DNA of 64,000 nt from a virus. The DNA lies in the IMG/VR virus record IMGVR_UViG_3300019752_000001. One strand, given 5' to 3'. Below, one piece after another: positions 3,886 through 60,850 of the stretch. Under the pieces are notes generated by a model. It was not told the origin of the DNA, did no database searches, and was given only the letters and a program-made list of their open reading frames with translations. Each line of letters opens with the position of its first letter. Position 1 is the stretch's first letter. The position numbers and the translations under genes are program-made.

Positions 3886-5166
3886 CACTAAATTATCATG
3901 TGTACCCAACACCTCCCACCAAGCTTCTCTGAATGTGTCAACAAGCAACTGCTCATCTTCCTGCTTAACTACAGCTGAATCATGATACGGAAGGAGAGGT
4001 TTGTCAAGGGCTGTGAAGGTGTTTATTACATTCATGAGGATGGAGGAATCTAAGTATTGTAGTTGTTGCCAAAGGAGAGAGGATGAACCAGGATATAAAG
4101 AGTTGCTTAGTAACACTTCAGAGATGCGATGATTAGTTTTTAACAAAGAGTTTACTACATCAGTTGGACACAACACATCATAATTTACTGTGGGGTAGTC
4201 TCTATCATCCACTGACTGCTTTATTTGGTTCAGTGTAAACCACCCGCATGACCTTTCAGCTTTCTTAAGGTTTTCACAATAGAGGAGCGACATAAAGAAC
4301 TTCTTACACAACCCTCTGATATCCTCGTACCCTCCCTGTACAAGCCCTTGTTCAACCTTATAAGGTTCAAAGTGTTCCGGTAAGTTTATTCCTAAATGGC
4401 AGGCTATCAGGTTTGGGTGAAGACACTTAATATCCACCTCAACAGTTCTCTGTCCATCAATAGTGATAGTTGGTCTTAGCTTAGAAGGGAGAGATTGAAA
4501 CCCTCCACAACTATAAACTCTTCCTGCTAGCGTTATCTTCTCTGAGAATATACGTCTGTAACAAGGACTGCAAGAGTAGTCCCCCACTTTGACTGTATGA
4601 CCACTTAACATATTGTTATAATCTTTCATATCCTGCTTAAGCTGACCAATACCTTTAGGCTTGACACCTGTAACCTGCTTACCTTTCAAGTCGCGTATAA
4701 CCACTTCCTCTTCATTCCCTCTACTGGCCCCTTCAGAGCTAACAGGAAGCTCTGAGAAGAGATTTATAAGAGGTTGTAGAGGTTTTATAGAGGACTTGCA
4801 ATAGTCCTCCTCGTGCAGGTAATAGCCTTTGTAGAGGGTTATTAATCCCAACTCTTCAAGTAATGGTAAGAGTTCAAGCATCTTCTTGTATGAAAGTTTC
4901 TGTTTGTACTTTTTGTTTGCTTCTGAGTATCTTACAGGTTTCAGAGAGATATTAAAGAAATCTCCTCCGTATCTCAAGGTTTTAGATATAGCTGTAACTA
5001 GGCACCAAACTTCATTATCGTACTTAGAACCTACATTAAGTAATTTTGTAACTTCTTTGTGTACATACAAGAAATAAGTACTTCTCTTTATCTGTAGATT
5101 GAATGGTTCAGAAGTAGCTCTAATCTTTATCTGTTGTTCTTTCTCCAGGGTCAGGAGTTCTATCAT
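3868..5166 (-). CDS. compact family-A DNA pol / T7-type RNAP palm-domain protein
   Basis: AGRVY pre-motif, motif A VEVDIKCLHP, motif B-like RGLCKK...LLY, motif C PYHDSAVV; no exonuclease domain seen. Confidence 0.65.
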   Translation of the reverse strand: MIELLTLEKEQQIKIRATSEPFNLQIKRSTYFLYVHKEVTKLLNVGSKYDNEVWCLVTAISKTLRYGGDFFNISLKPVRYSEANKKYKQKLSYKKMLELLPLLEELGLITLYKGYYLHEEDYCKSSIKPLQPLINLFSELPVSSEGASRGNEEEVVIRDLKGKQVTGVKPKGIGQLKQDMKDYNNMLSGHTVKVGDYSCSPCYRRIFSEKITLAGRVYSCGGFQSLPSKLRPTITIDGQRTVEVDIKCLHPNLIACHLGINLPEHFEPYKVEQGLVQGGYEDIRGLCKKFFMSLLYCENLKKAERSCGWFTLNQIKQSVDDRDYPTVNYDVLCPTDVVNSLLKTNHRISEVLLSNSLYPGSSSLLWQQLQYLDSSILMNVINTFTALDKPLLPYHDSAVVKQEDEQLLVDTFREAWWEVLGTHDNLVLTRAF

Positions 5167-5599: not shown

Positions 5600-6061
5600 T
5601 CACCCTTTATGCCCTACAATATCCCCACACTCACAGTCCTTGGCAATCATCTTAGCGACTAACAAAGTTTGCTCATGAAGCTCATATAGAATGGTATGAA
5701 CAAACTTATATTTCACTTGCTCATCATTTTCTGTATCGTTAGCCCATTTAACCAGGTTCCTCATAACACAGGCGTAGGAGTCACAAGCAAGAATTTCCCC
5801 GTACAGATCCTCTACTTCGTCATAGGTAACAGGGATATATTTCTTATGCAGAAGAGGTAGTACATTACCAACAGGTTCGAATATACGCCAAGGGTTTGTC
5901 AGTCTACGTGTATCAGCCAGAGCATCTTGGAACATCTTCATACGTTCTGGGTTGCGACGCTTCTTATAATACTGTGCAGTGTTGGTCACAGTACGTCGAG
6001 ACATCGCTCCAGAGTTCAGTGCATCAATTACTTCTTGTTTGGTGTTATACTTCGGTTTCAT
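5600..6061 (-). CDS. hypothetical protein
   Basis: ORF track; AAGGA RBS; promoter. Confidence 0.75.
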   Translation of the reverse strand: MKPKYNTKQEVIDALNSGAMSRRTVTNTAQYYKKRRNPERMKMFQDALADTRRLTNPWRIFEPVGNVLPLLHKKYIPVTYDEVEDLYGEILACDSYACVMRNLVKWANDTENDEQVKYKFVHTILYELHEQTLLVAKMIAKDCECGDIVGHKG

Positions 6062-6098
6062 TAGTGTTCCTTATTCAAATTAAGTGTAATACAACTAC

Positions 6099-7281: not shown

Positions 7282-7642
7282 TTGTAACCCTTCTTTAATA
7301 TTAACTGTTACGTAACTTATTAGCACGTTTCCTCAACAGTAGCGCTTGCACCTCGAATTTTGGTGACACTCTTTCCAAGTAATTAGTTGCATCATCCACA
7401 GCTTTGGCAGCCACCTTTCTGTGGTGATCACACATTAAAACATAACCACGACCTGACAAACTACACCGATCTCATCTTTACCTTTAACAACCTATCCTGT
7501 AGGTGCTGTCCAGTCCTTCATAACAAACTTGTAAGTTATTCCTCTCCCCCAGTTACTTAAAGCATTACAACCTAGTTCTCCTTTTAGATTAATAGAAGGA
7601 GAAGCCTTTAGGAGTGCATCTGTGAAAGTTTTATGTGTTTAT

Positions 7643-8113
7643 TCATTTGAACAGCCACCTCCATAGGGAAGTATCTCGTTTGTGTTGTGCATCACAGGCT
7701 GCATTTCTATCATCCCACCAACAAGGCAACCCTTTTTCCTCCCTTTCTCGTTCATCATCCATAACCTTTTGTGCATCCCAACCCCCTTTGTATTTATCAA
7801 ACCCGCAGACAGCCTTATCCAAGCTTAAGGTTCCTATATTTCTGAGGAAAGCTCGCTCATTGTATACTCTCAAAGATGTCATAGCAAGATCTTGCTTCCA
7901 TCCTTTATATCTGTTATGTGCAGCTTTGTCTACATCTTCACGAAGTCTTCCACAATACTCTATTAAGTCTCTGCCATGAGGACAAATCACAGTAACATAA
8001 TAACCTGCATTACCCTCGAAAGGTATACTCCACTTATTACAGTCCTCTTCTGTCATCATCCAGACTTCTAAATCTAAGTCTTTATACTTGATATTCTCCT
8101 TAGTTCCCATCAA
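7643..8113 (-). CDS. hypothetical protein
   Basis: ORF track. Confidence 0.65.
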   Translation of the reverse strand: MMGTKENIKYKDLDLEVWMMTEEDCNKWSIPFEGNAGYYVTVICPHGRDLIEYCGRLREDVDKAAHNRYKGWKQDLAMTSLRVYNERAFLRNIGTLSLDKAVCGFDKYKGGWDAQKVMDDEREREEKGLPCWWDDRNAACDAQHKRDTSLWRWLFK

Positions 8114-53663: not shown

Positions 53664-54032
53664 TTACAAGCCTCCTCCTTTCCATCTGGCTGGACCATTT
53701 GTACGAGAGTCGATATGTACAAAGGTTTTGTATAGTCCGAAACCGTATTGGTCTGGATACTGATTGCAAAGGTAGTTGTATAACCCCTCAGGATCTAGTG
53801 TAGGAAGATCCATAGCACGACCTTTAAGGTGTTGAGAGTGCTTTGTACCCTTCTCAGCTGCGTTGTGAACTGCGCAACGAGCACCAGAGGTAGGTTTGAT
53901 AGGGTGACGTACAAAGTCCCTGCATTCATCAGCTAGAGCCAGTGTAACCCCATCCATTGTGTCAAACCCGCAGCCACACTTACAGGCTACTTCGTGACGA
54001 TAGAAATGTTTACTAATTTTTTCTTTAGGCAT
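53664..54032 (-). CDS. endolysin, M15 family peptidase
   Basis: CKCGCG, SG.RC..HN, SQH..G.A.D, FVHID. Confidence 0.88.
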   Translation of the reverse strand: MPKEKISKHFYRHEVACKCGCGFDTMDGVTLALADECRDFVRHPIKPTSGARCAVHNAAEKGTKHSQHLKGRAMDLPTLDPEGLYNYLCNQYPDQYGFGLYKTFVHIDSRTNGPARWKGGGL

Positions 54033-54550: not shown

Positions 54551-54624
54551 TGGAGCAGGCGACGAGAATCGAACTCGCATCTTCTGGTTGGAAGCCAGAA
54601 ATTCTACCATTAAACTACACCTGC
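54551..54624 (-). tRNA. tRNA-Gly(TCC)
   Basis: GCAGGTG/CGCCTGC-T-CCA; TCTGG-CTTCCAA-CCAGA; GTTCGATT. Confidence 0.95.
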
Positions 54625-54625
54625 T

Positions 54626-54700
54626 TGGTGCCTCCGACTGGTAACGATCCAGAGTCTTCCCGGTTATGAGCCAGGCCGCTTTACCTTAAGCTACAAAGGC
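54626..54700 (-). tRNA. tRNA with CAT anticodon (Met or Ile2)
   Basis: GCCTTTG/CGGAGGC-A-CCA; CCTGG-CTCATAA-CCGGG; atypical T loop ATCGTTA. Confidence 0.85.
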
Positions 54701-54709
54701 TACTTCTTA

Positions 54710-54955
54710 TTACACTACTTCAGTAAACTCCAAAGTCCCTTTCTCAAGATCCTGCTTAGTTTCTCTTAGTAGGTGAGATGATATTGTAGATCTTACCACA
54801 TCAACCTTTACTATTTCAACAAGTTTATCAGGATTGTTTTCAACCTCTTCATAGAATAGATCCAGCATCTCTACAGAGGCATATTCAGCTGCTTGTTTAA
54901 AGACTACTGTCTGTCCCACTCTTAGCTCGAAACAGGATTTAACTCCATCCCTCAA
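54710..54955 (-). CDS. hypothetical protein
   Basis: ORF track. Confidence 0.55.
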   Translation of the reverse strand: MRDGVKSCFELRVGQTVVFKQAAEYASVEMLDLFYEEVENNPDKLVEIVKVDVVRSTISSHLLRETKQDLEKGTLEFTEVV

Positions 54956-55094
54956 GAGAAGACCTCACCACCTTTATTATACTTCTTCTCAAGGTATGTT
55001 ACAGCCTCTGTGTGTCCATTCTTCAATAACACTTCCTTCCACAAATCGCGCATACCTGTTAGTAACATTTCAGCTTTCTCGTATTCAGAGTTTT

Positions 55095-55332: not shown

Positions 55333-55364
55333 ATATAACAACGCGCTTAGCGCAAAGGTTATGC
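55333..55364 (+). other. collapsed attC A
   Basis: ATATAAC-aacgcgcttagcgcaaag-GTTATGC. Confidence 0.55.
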
Positions 55365-55664
55365 GAATGCGCTTTGAGCCTTTCCGCGTAGGCGCATAAT
55401 TAATGTGTCATCCATATAGTCGTAATCATCAGGTATATTCCATACCTGCATTTTATGACTATACCCTTTATATTTTCTTCTCAGTTTGCTTCTATGGTGG
55501 TTCTCCATGCAAACAATTATGTCAGCCCAATCCATCTGCTCTTTAGTTATAGGTCTATCTGCATCTCTGTCGGTGCCAGCATAATCCTTTTCAAATCCCC
55601 CTAGACTTTGCGCTGCCGTTTTACTCCTAAGTCTAGCCATACTACATATAAATAAGACTCTCAT
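55359..55664 (-). CDS. LMW protein-tyrosine-phosphatase-like protein (cassette 1)
   Basis: LFICSMARLRS P-loop, WADII.CME, IPDDY; start and stop lie inside the attC core sites. Confidence 0.85.
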   Translation of the reverse strand: MRVLFICSMARLRSKTAAQSLGGFEKDYAGTDRDADRPITKEQMDWADIIVCMENHHRSKLRRKYKGYSHKMQVWNIPDDYDYMDDTLIMRLRGKAQSAFA

Positions 55665-55722
55665 AACAATTCAATCAAAGCGGAACTCCGCTTAGCTCCG
55701 TCCGTTTATCTCTGGGTTATAC
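55661..55722 (+). other. attC site B (62 bp)
   Basis: TCATAAC...AATCAAAGCGGA...TCCGTTTATC...GTTATAC, two unpaired bases on the left arm. Confidence 0.75.
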
Positions 55723-55753
55723 CTCTCAACTCTCGTACCTAGGAGGTACAACT

Positions 55754-55859
55754 ATGGATCAGCACCAACTAAAAAGATTTACTTAACCTGCACCTTAAAA
55801 AAAATCACCCAGAATATGAAGAATGGATGCAATTTGATGAGGTCGTCTCTGGCGACTAG
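55754..55859 (+). pseudogene. small cassette-2 ORF, frameshifted
   Basis: AGGAGG RBS, MDQHQLK[+1]DLLNLHLKKNHPEYEEWMQFDEVVSGD. Confidence 0.45.
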
Positions 55860-55864
55860 TCCTG

Positions 55865-56029
55865 CTACCTTACGGTGTAGTTAAGGGCTAAGTCTGTAGC
55901 CTCTTCTTGTGTGAGTCTCCCTTCCTTTACAGATTCGAGGAAGAACTCCTTCTTAGCCTTAGCTACACGTACCTTGTGCTCGTAATTTTCTATCAAGGAG
56001 TTAAAATGTTCTTCAATGAGGTTCGTCAT
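55865..56029 (-). CDS. 54-aa helical protein (cassette 2, reverse)
   Basis: manual read MTNLIEEHFNSLIENYEHK...; GGAG RBS. Confidence 0.55.
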   Translation of the reverse strand: MTNLIEEHFNSLIENYEHKVRVAKAKKEFFLESVKEGRLTQEEATDLALNYTVR

Positions 56030-56261
56030 TAATTATTCTCCATAATCCGTGTTATAAAAGTAAACCAAAGAGGTTATGACACACCTCGGCTTTATTAAAA
56101 ATGTTACAAGCTCTTTATCTAAATGTGCACTCCAGAACTTGACCATTCTGTGCACGATTCACTCAGTCCAGCAAGGAGGTGGGCAAGCACACAGTCTTAC
56201 TGAAATTCACCCTCTGGTGGTTGTGACTGGCAGACGCCATACAAACACTGGAGACGATTCC

Positions 56262-56417
56262 ATGATCGAATTGACCATTGTCTTACAGGTTGCCGGTAGT
56301 ATTGTCCCTGTAAGCTTGGTTCAGGTTGCAGTTGAAAATGCTGCTGCGATTAAGGATCTGGCCGCTGCCGCGTATTTGCTGTCCAAGGCAAATAAGATCT
56401 TTCGCAAGAAAACCTAA
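56262..56417 (+). CDS. 51-aa protein (cassette 3)
   Basis: GGAG RBS, MIELTIVLQVAG... Confidence 0.5.
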   Translation: MIELTIVLQVAGSIVPVSLVQVAVENAAAIKDLAAAAYLLSKANKIFRKKT

Positions 56418-56562
56418 CCAATAATTCTCTAAGCTTTTCTGAAGCTTCCAGAACCAAACTGATCAAATTGGAACATAGAAAATAAATCTCAAATTAGTAG
56501 CGTCTTACCCTCACATGACTGTTGAGTTTGGCGCTCACCAAATAGTTAGTACAACAAAGAGC

Positions 56563-56621
56563 TTATAACAAAGCAATCCAACCGGACTGCGCTTCGCTTG
56601 CCGCTGTTTGCGGCGTTATGT
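56563..56621 (+). other. attC site D (59 bp)
   Basis: TTATAAC-aaaGCAATCCAACCGG..gcgcttcgc..CCGCTGTTTGC-ggc-GTTATGT. Confidence 0.8.
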
Positions 56622-56664
56622 TTATCTAGTTCTATTCCTAACCGTTAAGAAAGGAGTTCTTATT

Positions 56665-56877
56665 ATGTCTGAATTAAACGTCTCTCTTGGAACTTACAAA
56701 TGTATCAAGTGCGGTAATGAAGAGTTCCCACTCTCCAGTGACTTCCAACTTAGTGACGAGGTTTCCTGCCTCAATTGTGGATTCACTGCTCGCTACGAAG
56801 AACTCAGGCAAGCCCACGTCGAGCAAACATTTGAAGAATCTGCGCAATTCGTTAGGGACTTCCTCAGAATTAAGTAG
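56665..56877 (+). CDS. small zinc-ribbon protein (cassette 4)
   Basis: AAGGAG RBS; CIKC...CLNC. Confidence 0.7.
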   Translation: MSELNVSLGTYKCIKCGNEEFPLSSDFQLSDEVSCLNCGFTARYEELRQAHVEQTFEESAQFVRDFLRIK

Positions 56878-56952
56878 CTCTTTTAGACGAGAAAGTTCTT
56901 TAGTGTAATCCTCTGTGTCGAAAAGAATTTTCCCTGTTCTTTGTTTTTCCAT
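56674..56952 (-). CDS. antisense ORF in cassette 4
   Basis: GAGG RBS, MEKQRTGK; overlaps the plus gene heavily. Confidence 0.35.
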   Translation of the reverse strand: MEKQRTGKILFDTEDYTKELSRLKELLNSEEVPNELRRFFKCLLDVGLPEFFVASSESTIEAGNLVTKLEVTGEWELFITALDTFVSSKRDV

Positions 56953-56989
56953 AAAAACCTCATACGGTGGATAGTTAGTCAATTTTAAA

Positions 56990-57008
56990 ACATAACAAAG
57001 TGTTACAT
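56990..57008 (+). other. collapsed attC E
   Basis: ACATAAC-aaagt-GTTACAT. Confidence 0.5.
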
Positions 57009-57074
57009 GTTCACCTGCACTCCTACAACCAAGCTGGAGCGCTCTTTAACACCAAGTCCAAGGAGGACTTATTT

Positions 57075-57296
57075 ATGTCTGATTACCACTTTAAACAGGG
57101 TTTTAACCCTAAATGCCTGTCTTGCGAAAAAGAGAATATCAAGATTTCTCTAAGCGAACACCTATACGGACCTTGCAATGGCCAGTACGAAGTTATTTAC
57201 TGTGGAGATTGTAAAACATTCTTAGGTGCCCACCCAATTGTAGTCAGTAATTTATTTAAAAACTTGCCTACAGATTTGGAAATTAATCACGGTTAA
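57075..57296 (+). CDS. small zinc-ribbon protein (cassette 5)
   Basis: AGGAGG RBS; CLSC...YCGDC. Confidence 0.7.
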   Translation: MSDYHFKQGFNPKCLSCEKENIKISLSEHLYGPCNGQYEVIYCGDCKTFLGAHPIVVSNLFKNLPTDLEINHG

Positions 57297-57495
57297 GTAG
57301 TGCAATCTTGATCTTTTCCTTTTCAATATTGAGATGGTGGATAATCTCTTCTATCATCTCAATCTGATACTGCCCGTTGGAAGAGAAAGTGTTGAGTCGC
57401 TTAACCTCGTCGCTGAGGTTATTAAAGGTCCATTCATTTTTCAAAAGTTTACTCACAATAAAATTACCCCATTCTAATTTGAATATACGAAACAT
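57283..57495 (-). CDS. reverse ORF in cassette 5
   Basis: ATG within the attC F core (GTTATG on minus); convergent with the plus gene. Confidence 0.45.
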   Translation of the reverse strand: MFRIFKLEWGNFIVSKLLKNEWTFNNLSDEVKRLNTFSSNGQYQIEMIEEIIHHLNIEKEKIKIALLNRD

Positions 57496-57565
57496 AACAA
57501 GCGTAAACACAGGACAAGCCTCATTCGCTACGCTCAATCGTTTGCCCGTGTTACGGGCGTTATTA
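57492..57565 (+). other. attC site F (74 bp)
   Basis: ACATAAC-aagCGTAAACAC...GTGTTACG-ggc-GTTATTA with an extra A in L''. Confidence 0.8.
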
Positions 57566-57657
57566 CTAGGTGCTTTATTTCTCATTAGTGCAATCAGCCA
57601 CCAACTCATTCAATTGTTTAGTTAGGACCGATAGAGCTATCTCCAACACTTTAATTA

Positions 57658-60138: not shown

Positions 60139-60794
60139 GGCAGTGTCCTTATTTTCAGTTTTAAAGGTATTTACAACACCAACTACATAGATACTTCTAA
60201 ACACTCTCCGAAAATTACCTTAAATATATATAGAGTAAAGATGGGAGAGTGTACATGAAAACAATGTGTAAATATTGCAGTCAGCACTACTGTGTAGTTT
60301 TTGTGTAGCAACTATCCCGTAGGGATGAACACATACACAGATTGACATAGATCCTGTACAGACAACCTAATAGTAACACACATAACAAAAAGAGCAAACA
60401 TAAAATCACATATTAAGTAGACGTTTTAGTAGCTTGTTCAAGGTGTTAATTTTAACTTGTCTTTTGTTATTACTTGTTGTTTGTACAGTGGAGACTAAGT
60501 AGCTTGTTAAGTGTCTATGTAATCTATGATCCCGAAGGGATAGTTCCTACATAGTTGCTAACAAGACAACTTCATAGTCTACTCAAACCGAAAGAGGGTA
60601 ATAACAGTGGAACACAAAACCCTCTCTCCTTGTAAAAGAAGCTATTAAGCAACCACTTAGTTGTTGTAATAGGTGTCTGAGCTGTAAGCTCTACTACTAT
60701 TAAGGTGGCTAAGTAGTTGGCTCTTTCTTTTGATCTTATTCTTATTTCTCTTTTGTTCTTATATTATTCTTATAGTGGCGCATTTTGACACATA

Positions 60795-60847
60795 TATTGG
60801 TTGCATTTTGCAACCTATCCATCATTTATTGGTTGCATTTTGCAACC
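60795..60847. repeat. two 21-bp direct repeats, each palindromic (GGTTGCA-TTT-TGCAACC)
   Basis: TATTGGTTGCATTTTGCAACC at 60795 and 60827. Confidence 0.9.
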
Positions 60848-60850
60848 AAA

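Follow-up and report, generated by a model that had tools for sequence, protein, structure and literature searches.

Three Shewanella-type attC sites and their cassettes in a lytic-type myovirus

This report concerns a candidate integron cassette array at 55.33–57.57 kb of the window, by which we mean the whole 64,000-nucleotide stretch of DNA analysed here (IMG/VR virus record IMGVR_UViG_3300019752_000001). The window belongs to a myovirus contig some 140 kb long that encodes tail sheath, tube and tape measure proteins together with a family A DNA polymerase and a primase-helicase. The polymerase (PolA) is about 54% identical to that of Aeromonas phage 2L372D, about 49% identical to those of several Vibrio phages and 43% identical in amino acids to that of Pseudoalteromonas phage H101, and a megablast search with the region found no close nucleotide match among deposited phages. 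Genes at 36 to 61 kb are transcribed from the minus strand, and the array stands in a variable accessory region, with endolysin and tRNA genes on one side and early genes on the other. Three attC-type sites, called S1, S2 and S3 below, mark out three cassettes at their crossover points (G|TT):

55359–55716, plus strand: cassette 1, beginning with the TT that follows G55358 and ending with the G in the R' core of S1; holds the inverted gene A and S1
55717–56615, plus strand: cassette 2, between the crossover points of S1 and S2; holds open reading frame (ORF) B on the minus strand and module C on the plus strand
56616–57559, plus strand: cassette 3, or two fused cassettes, between the crossover points of S2 and S3; holds ORFs D and E on the plus strand and ORF F on the minus strand

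Rfam models scanned over the region report the two tRNAs only and nothing at the attC-like sites; to our knowledge, Rfam contains no attC family. The folding of single sites is uninformative, since local hairpins compete with the structure sought. Because neither source could speak to the question, independent attC models were needed, and two covariance models were built on sites from outside the window. The first, R1, comes from 16 attC sites downstream of intIA in the complete Vibrio anguillarum integron of phage MK672802, one of those treated in PMC9892861, with the pairs of R-box, spacer, L-box and inner stem assigned by hand on the aligned sites. In this training alignment the pairs hold in 97% of cells, as against 30–43% in slid controls, and seven pairs have changed on both sides. 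The second, R2, comes from 53 sites, 49 from bacterial loci and four from phage H101. Its source was a degenerate motif common to S3 and the H101 sites, which led to 56 bacterial or archaeal loci, mostly of marine Gammaproteobacteria, where chance alone, by our estimate, would give about three matches; many of the 56 carry co-oriented runs of R1 matches and so are real arrays. Both models were run with cmsearch over both strands of the whole window with filters off, and placed the three sites as follows:

55661–55722, plus strand: S1, 62 nt, the attC of cassette 1; R1 15.2 bits (E 0.16), R2 30.0 bits (E 8e-5)
56563–56621, plus strand: S2, 59 nt; R1 26.9 bits (E 1.5e-4), R2 44.5 bits (E 2.6e-8)
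57492–57565, plus strand: S3, 74 nt, last in the array; R1 21.3 bits (E 4e-3), R2 44.1 bits (E 3.3e-8)

These are the top three matches of both models in the window, all on the plus strand, and the best R2 match beyond them reaches only 17.1 bits. That match, at 60380–60451 on the plus strand (E 0.1), lies within an AT-rich non-coding stretch (60240–60850) and is probably due to chance. For calibration, R1 recovers the four attC sites of the published H101 cluster at 35.8–42.6 bits, and real Shewanella sites score 35–54 bits with R2. Across about 400 kb from three related phage genomes, the best R1 match was partial and scored 13.9 bits, and no R1 match at E ≤ 5 was found in 67 kb of related loci.

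The internal structure of the sites is in keeping with these scores. In an alignment of 18 sites that includes S1–S3, 94% of pair cells are paired, compared with 29–44% in slid controls, and 10 of the 16 pairs have changed on both sides, with the reservation that this alignment was fitted to the model and so leans toward structure. The ends of S1–S3, ATAAC...GTTAT, are paired in the model alignments as R'' and R' cores should be, and xxATAAC/GTTATxx is the commonest core form in real Vibrio and Shewanella sites. Their L-box pairs are filled, the plus strand alone scores, and unpaired bases of the 5' arm fall at the same extrahelical columns as in the 16 Vibrio sites. The motif ATAAC-N40-70-GTTAT occurs 10 times in the window, where 2.95 occurrences are expected, and three of these are S1–S3; ATAACAA has five plus-strand copies within 55335–57494. 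The initial annotation, made from the letters alone, had placed three intact attC-like sites here and had remarked on extra bases in their left arms: R1 and R2 each return exactly the same ends, and the extra bases fall at the unpaired columns of the model. An attC covariance model was among the checks that it proposed, and two models of outside origin place all three sites first, S1 being borderline with R1. At the level of sequence, S1–S3 are thus confirmed as genuine attC-type sites. S2 and S3 look intact and recent; S1 scores lower, and the mini-sites described below may be decayed remnants.

The closest relatives of these sites are bacterial. In S3, 68 nt match an attC from a genome of the family of Shewanella benthica KT99 (G160) at 93% identity, and over 106 nt its identity to two copies within S. 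benthica KT99 is 83%. Two further genomes of that family (G121 and G099) have attC sites to which the 3' half of S2 is 93% identical, and S2 as a whole shares 86% identity over 58 nt with an attC from a locus of a gammaproteobacterial metagenome-assembled genome (L060); an exact-sequence search with S2 among viral contigs found no match. S. benthica carries an integron integrase that scores 394 bits, above the cut-off of its NCBIfam family. Its cassette beside the S3-like site and the cassette that follows S2 both start with GTTATGTTTAT, and the former is laid out like cassette 3, with a small plus-strand ORF and a convergent minus-strand ORF that starts just upstream of the attC. The likeness extends to the 35 nt before S3, which contain the start region of ORF F and have their homologue at the equivalent place in the S. 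benthica cassette; there the minus-strand ORF starts AAGGAG-ATG. For the contents of the cassettes, a DNA search of 179 Shewanella-family genomes gave no match, and among the ORFs compared, those of the array show no significant BLASTP similarity to the cassette ORFs of S. benthica or H101. A literature search with a Vibrio repeat sequence string likewise gave no match. Judged by these identities, S1–S3 are of the short attC type found in chromosomal integrons of Shewanella and other Alteromonadales. Shewanella-type integrons are the likely donors, and hence indicate a likely host range.

In S. benthica KT99 itself (L054, 2067–3010) the cassette that runs from GTTATGTTTAT to the attC is tandemly duplicated; it encodes a 67-aa ORF on the plus strand and, convergent with it and partly overlapping, a 58-aa ORF on the minus strand preceded by AAGGAG. 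The convergent-pair layout is common to this cassette, to the D/E/F cassettes of the present phage and to the cassettes of H101.

Cassette 1 provides the clearest record of movement. Its one gene is the following:

55359–55664, minus strand: gene A, 101 aa, low-molecular-weight (LMW) phosphotyrosine phosphatase-like, with a CX5R(S) P-loop; opposed to the top strand of the attC

The ATG of gene A lies within the R'' of S1 (CATAAC) and its TAA within GTTATGC. The match to Pfam LMWPc (E 2e-4) is below the cut-off; 35 homologues were found, some of them named tyrosine phosphatase at source. Relatives are tightly packed in the early regions of other phages, and one homologue is a canonical cassette between two attC sites of a bacterial array with at least 10 attC sites (L066, 444–960). 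Two unrelated metagenome contigs, L121 and L123, carry copies of gene A that are 76–83% identical and again inverted with respect to an S1-type attC that abuts the start codon. In a three-way alignment of these contigs with the window, homology runs from GTTATGCG to GGTTA, and the flanks are unrelated on both sides; the S1-type site of L121 and L123 has a conserved 5' arm and a diverged 3' arm. Because the ends of the homology are the G|TT crossover points, cassette 1 is a discrete mobile unit that integron-type recombination has put into at least three arrays. The reading of gene A as a native phage gene that merely abuts the array was dropped, since the homology block stops at the core sites.

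The first 1,200 nt of L121 (ENA ERZ505368; the same contig is JGI 3300011253, L122) hold four attC-like sites of 48–62 nt on one strand, with R2 scores of 17–26 bits. Each separates small genes that all lie on the opposite strand, the gene A homologue among them, so that this is an array of inverted genes. A phage-like contig, L010, whose gene A homologue is 70% identical in nucleotides, has attC-like sites at 5784–5839 and 6022–6071 on the minus strand, opposed to the genes and 1.5 kb away; they are weak, with about 14 bits for R1 and, for one of them, 21.3 bits for R2. A relationship between gene A and a 102-aa cassette gene on another metagenome contig (L001) was also considered, and on comparison the two are unrelated.

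Besides the three full-length sites, the initial annotation had listed three collapsed ones, at 55333, about 56040 and 56990. Two of them correspond to short palindromes:

55333–55364, plus strand: mini-palindrome ATATAAC...GTTATGC, 32 nt; R1 10.5 bits, R2 13.7 bits (E 0.65)
56988–57012, plus strand: short palindrome AAACATAAC-AAA-GTGTTACATGTT, between ORFs D and E; 56990–57008 scores 10.3 bits (R1) and 11.3 bits (R2)

For the one near 56040, the nearest match is 56058–56097, with 9.9 bits for R1 and no R2 match. Unrelated short palindromes of the form ATAACAA..GTTAT at 4603, 7518 and 13271 score like the three mini-sites (9.9–13.7 bits). As attC sites the collapsed ones are thus not established: the one near 56040 is without support, and 55333 alone has positional support. 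Cassette 1 opens at a G|TT junction whose G it provides, the homology of cassette 1 with L121 and L123 starts exactly at its GTTATGC, and L121 has a 48-nt attC-like site (17.4 bits) at the equivalent position. It may be a remnant or a very short attC, or else a secondary insertion site. The palindrome at 56988–57012 may be an attC remnant; its R'' is the same as the 9-nt R'' of S3 and complements the R' tail of S2.

The initial annotation had also held that the cores at the two ends of each cassette are complementary, as would be expected of IntI products. In a real Vibrio array, each R' tail complements the next R'' at seven of seven positions. Here, the R' tail of S2, GTTATGTTT, complements the R'' of S3, AAACATAAC, at all nine positions, and this part of the claim stands. 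The rest was slightly overstated: the R' at 55358 (GTTATGC) complements the R'' of S1 (TCATAAC) at six of seven positions, and the seven-of-seven pair GTTATAA/TTATAAC rests on an unconfirmed site at 56050. Taken between the full-length sites, the R' of S1 (GTTATAC) and the R'' of S2 (TTATAAC) complement each other at six of seven. Within a single site, R'' and R' do not match past the 5-nt core. The sequence AAACATAAC has five copies in the window, with 0.82 expected, and three of them are inside the array.

The cargo of cassettes 2 and 3 consists of small ORFs and one module of mixed coding and non-coding character:

55865–56029, minus strand: ORF B, 54 aa, with a GGAG ribosome-binding site; present in both the ORF list and the gene calls
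56134–56538, plus strand: module C, about 400 nt; a 51-aa hydrophobic peptide (56262–56417) between conserved non-coding 5' and 3' parts
56665–56877, plus strand: ORF D, 70 aa, CxxC...CxxC zinc-ribbon, with a strong ribosome-binding site
57075–57296, plus strand: ORF E, 73 aa, cysteine-rich, CxxC...CxxC
57283–57456, minus strand: ORF F, 57 aa, with a GTG start just upstream of S3; a 108-aa reading from the ATG at 57609 would cross S3

Profile searches gave no family match for ORFs B, E and F, and an internal boundary of cassette 2 near 56050 is unsupported by R1 and R2. Module C shares 70% nucleotide identity over 420 nt with the metagenome contigs L001 and L003, and a three-way alignment shows its flanks to be better conserved than the peptide, a homologue of which is 60% identical. 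Homologues lie at L001 1150–1545, L003 1423–1818 and L009 about 2400–2800; their peptides are hydrophobic and 47–55 aa long. A 52-nt leader is matched in 15 Vibrio parahaemolyticus plasmids, where the annotation is only a 47-aa hypothetical protein, and blastn of the array against plasmids returned this leader only and no attC match. Module C has no match in Rfam, and a scan of the genome collection with its motif gave zero matches. On four metagenome contigs (L001–L004) and on the plasmids it is not bounded by attC sites. By its layout, module C looks like a candidate type I toxin-antitoxin-like selfish module, apparently undescribed.

The same four contigs each carry a full-length Vibrio-type attC on the minus strand (L001 520–636, L002 1435–1551, L003 804–911 and L004 974–1081), with R1 scores of 45–47 bits. 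It follows the 102-aa gene mentioned above and adjoins the module C homologue and large genes (142, 640 and 739 aa) without Pfam matches.

ORF D matches the NCBIfam zinc-binding family ECs_2282 below its cut-off (E 9e-6) and has seven distant homologues. When compared with its homologue on L016, identity by codon position is 0.52/0.69/0.42, which fits the frame of D; for the 93-aa antisense ORF over D (56674–56955), which gene callers chose, the values are 0.37/0.62/0.42 and show no coding fit, so that this ORF is probably a shadow frame. D and E were considered as paralogues, but BLASTP finds no significant similarity between them. The cargo of the array is a short LMW-phosphatase-like protein, a candidate toxin-antitoxin-like module, two small zinc-ribbon proteins and small minus-strand ORFs.

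On the endolysin side, the nearest annotated features are the following:

53664–54032: endolysin gene
54551–54700: tRNA-Gly and tRNA-Met

A close relative of the phage, L100, has an endolysin that is 84% identical in amino acids and tail genes that are 72–76% identical in nucleotides. Between shared flanking genes it has about 0.8 kb with a different gene, compared with about 2.7 kb in the window, and no attC match is found in the 16 kb around its locus. The locus is thus hypervariable, and the array is not a constant feature of the lineage. A 204-aa flanking gene has no relatives in IMG/VR, a search with the sheath protein reached only loci at 30% identity, themselves without attC sites, and an endolysin relative on L101 is surrounded by insertion sequence elements. 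In a strain about 90% identical to this phage (L102, 136–986, compared with window positions 54701–54975), the tRNA genes and the 48-aa gene are set apart by some 580 additional bases that include a 65-aa ORF, further evidence of a hyperplastic region.

A 139.5-kb MEGAHIT-style contig and a 37.5-kb Logan contig agree letter for letter across the array and both its junctions, and the array has exact matches in two short contigs as well. There is no strain variation among these four contigs, which come from two assembly pipelines and may derive from related samples. The possibility raised in the initial annotation, that host DNA had been misassembled into the contig, is therefore unlikely, as sequence and junctions recur on separately assembled contigs. 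Its statement that the window has no intI is borne out by a tblastn search with the V. anguillarum IntIA at E ≤ 10. With three attC sites within 1.9 kb on the plus strand and no IntI-like match in the window, the locus has the make-up of a cluster of attC sites lacking an integrase (CALIN); a complete integron would have intI with an adjacent attI and a Pc promoter, none of which is present here.

We put at roughly 0.87 the probability that 55.33–57.57 kb comprises three genuine Shewanella-type attC sites without a nearby integrase, a CALIN, in a lytic-type myovirus, with cassettes made by IntI; we infer that they entered via a host integrase. The view of the initial annotation, an integron cassette array in a lytic myovirus, is supported by the model scores, by the near-identity to Shewanella attC sites and by the G|TT breakpoints of cassette 1. 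An IntI-type integrase that recombines folded, single-stranded attC would have made the cassettes and moved them. As the window encodes no IntI-like enzyme, the phage line most likely acquired them through a host integrase, supplied in trans while a host with an integron was being infected. The first cassette may have been inserted at a GTT secondary site or at a short one like 55333, and those that followed at attC sites. It is plausible that the phage uses host IntI as a device for gene capture and shuffling, and ongoing exchange in the present phage is possible.

Several observations weigh against this reading. S1 is borderline with the Vibrio-only model R1 (E 0.16), and all E-values come from a short calibration and are rough. 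Minimum-energy DNA folds of single sites give no attC hairpin and have no unusual stability (z-scores of −1.1 to −1.75), and S2 and S3 have 3' arms that fit the pattern of intrinsic terminators as well. No IntI-like gene is found in the 64-kb window, the remaining 75 kb or so of the genome being outside the search. Cassettes 2 and 3 each have several ORFs on both strands, which is atypical of bacterial arrays. The homology of module C with L001, L003 and a V. parahaemolyticus plasmid ends short of the attC boundaries, so that not all of the cargo is cassette-defined. Finally, any recombination activity of S1–S3 is putative.

Among the other explanations, the one that deserves most attention is that the array is an inert fossil: a block of a host chromosomal integron acquired once by illegitimate or homologous recombination, rather than through IntI working on phage DNA, and now carried as passenger DNA that is neither exchanged nor used. 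This is a live alternative to ongoing exchange, if on the whole an unlikely account. The lack of an integrase in the window, the lower score of S1, the possibly decayed mini-sites and the identity of four contigs without variation are all what one would expect of it; so are the hypervariability of the locus and the unrelated genes that relatives have there, and off-target recombination has been raised as a route by Qi et al. (PMC9892861). However, the three attC sites differ in type and have their nearest relatives in different genomes, which fits piecemeal assembly better than a single block. At some point, in this phage or elsewhere, G|TT-precise recombination clearly moved cassette 1, and H101 has duplicated cassettes within its own array.

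That S1–S3 are phage intrinsic terminators, regulatory hairpins or promoter/stem-loop shuffling elements of the T4 type, and merely resemble attC, seems to us very improbable. It would account for the plus-strand terminator pattern of the S2 and S3 3' arms and for the ten terminator-like sites in the region, where 2.3 are expected, and attC sites themselves are said to act as weak terminators (PMC9892861). Yet it leaves unexplained the conserved 5' arm, with its ATAACAA, spacer and L'' with unpaired bases, as well as the 44-bit scores from a model built on outside sites, the 93% identity to Shewanella chromosomal attC sites and the cassette-precise breakpoints of homology. Nor does any such element occur elsewhere in the window, where the next R2 score is 17.1 bits, or in close relatives. 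An assembly chimera, a false join made by the assembler between host integron and phage DNA, is the least credible account of all. The origin of the contig in a metagenome assembly and the bacterial type of the sites might suggest it, but the identical array and junctions in the 139.5-kb and 37.5-kb contigs and the two short contigs that match argue otherwise. So do the uniform GC content of about 0.40, the phage genes on both flanks, the frequency of the gene A family in phages and the equivalent array in the same place in an isolated phage, H101.

The phenomenon itself is already published. Integrons, and 17 attC clusters lacking an integrase, have been described in phages, virulent ones included (Qi et al. 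2023, PMC9892861), and IntI1 recombined five of six phage attC sites tested, which included sites from H101 (PMC9892861). Besides H101, ten IMG/VR viral contigs (L111–L120) carry the same short attC type, eight of them with two to four co-oriented sites at R2 scores of 27–56 bits, and attC clusters are thus recurrent among viral contigs. The remark in the initial annotation that such arrays are seldom noted in virulent phages is outdated on both counts. What is new here is a further example, evidence at the level of the cassette, a clue to donor and host, and the positional parallel with H101. The array adds to the few attC clusters without an integrase that are known in virulent phages, and, unlike most calls that come from a model alone, it documents mobility through one cassette that recurs in three arrays with its ends at G|TT.

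The position and orientation shared with H101, together with the inverted genes, hint at a phage-specific use of integron cassettes. One could go further and suppose that attC arrays are maintained in large lytic myoviruses of marine Gammaproteobacteria as an exchange platform adapted to phages, rather than carried by accident, and that SOS-induced host IntI would use it during infection to swap accessory and counter-defence genes between phages and host integrons. We regard this as speculative and rather doubtful. It is suggested by the equivalent place of the arrays, upstream of endolysin, in two distantly related phages, and by their orientation, opposed to phage transcription, such that many cargo genes are inverted compared with those of bacterial cassettes and are read with the phage genes. 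It is also suggested by the circulation of the same inverted cassette, gene A with its attC, among such arrays. Should host IntI act on these sites in the course of infection, lytic phages would provide a direct route for cassettes between bacteria and would themselves sample small accessory genes.

The nearest known counterpart is the array of H101. Both phages are large myoviruses of virulent type (132 kb for H101 and about 140 kb here), their PolA proteins being 43% identical. Both have short attC sites of 57–77 nt, with a similar ..TCGCTACGCT.. loop and a spacing of 0.6–0.9 kb; the array of H101, too, lies just upstream of the endolysin gene, with the attC sites on the strand opposite to phage transcription, convergent small plus- and minus-strand ORFs in the cassettes and no intI nearby. 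The two differ in cassette contents, in the number of sites (four in H101, including a near-identical pair) and in the closest relatives of the sites, which for the present phage are Shewanella-family attC sites. Moreover, two of the H101 sites have been tested with IntI1 (PMC9892861). Within the H101 cluster (L035, 5900–8000; 75.9–78.0 kb of the record), an identical leader of about 80 nt follows attC 1 and attC 3, and sites 2 and 4 are near-identical, repeats that suggest cassette duplication inside the phage array. An unannotated 82-aa ORF on the plus strand there (7467–7715) is overlapped by the annotated minus-strand gp135.

A possible entry route for a first cassette is described in a preprint on IntI-catalysed cassette insertion at non-att sites of bacterial genomes (bioRxiv 10.1101/2022.09.11.507474). 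The left junction formed in this way would have only G|TT and the cassette's own R' tail, as at 55358. The recipients described there are bacterial genomes rather than a phage such as the present one.

With the sedentary chromosomal integrons of Shewanella, Vibrio and other marine Gammaproteobacteria, the array shares attC architecture and sequence type and the rule that links each R' with the following R''; with S. benthica KT99 it also has in common the GTTATGTTTAT start and the convergent-ORF layout, and a relative of gene A is found as a bacterial cassette. It differs from them in having no intI, attI or Pc and only three sites, heterogeneous rather than species-specific, in residing on a replicon of lytic phage type, and in that several of its genes are inverted with respect to the attC sites.

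The promoter-early stem-loop (PeSL) elements of T4-type phages, mobile regulatory cassettes, are promoter-plus-hairpin units that recur between genes, and gene shuffling by homologous recombination has been proposed for them. There, as here, the hyperplastic region of a large lytic myovirus has repeated intergenic hairpins on either side of its small accessory genes. The sites described here differ from PeSL elements in that they match attC models and bacterial integron sites, and in that their cassettes end precisely at G|TT.

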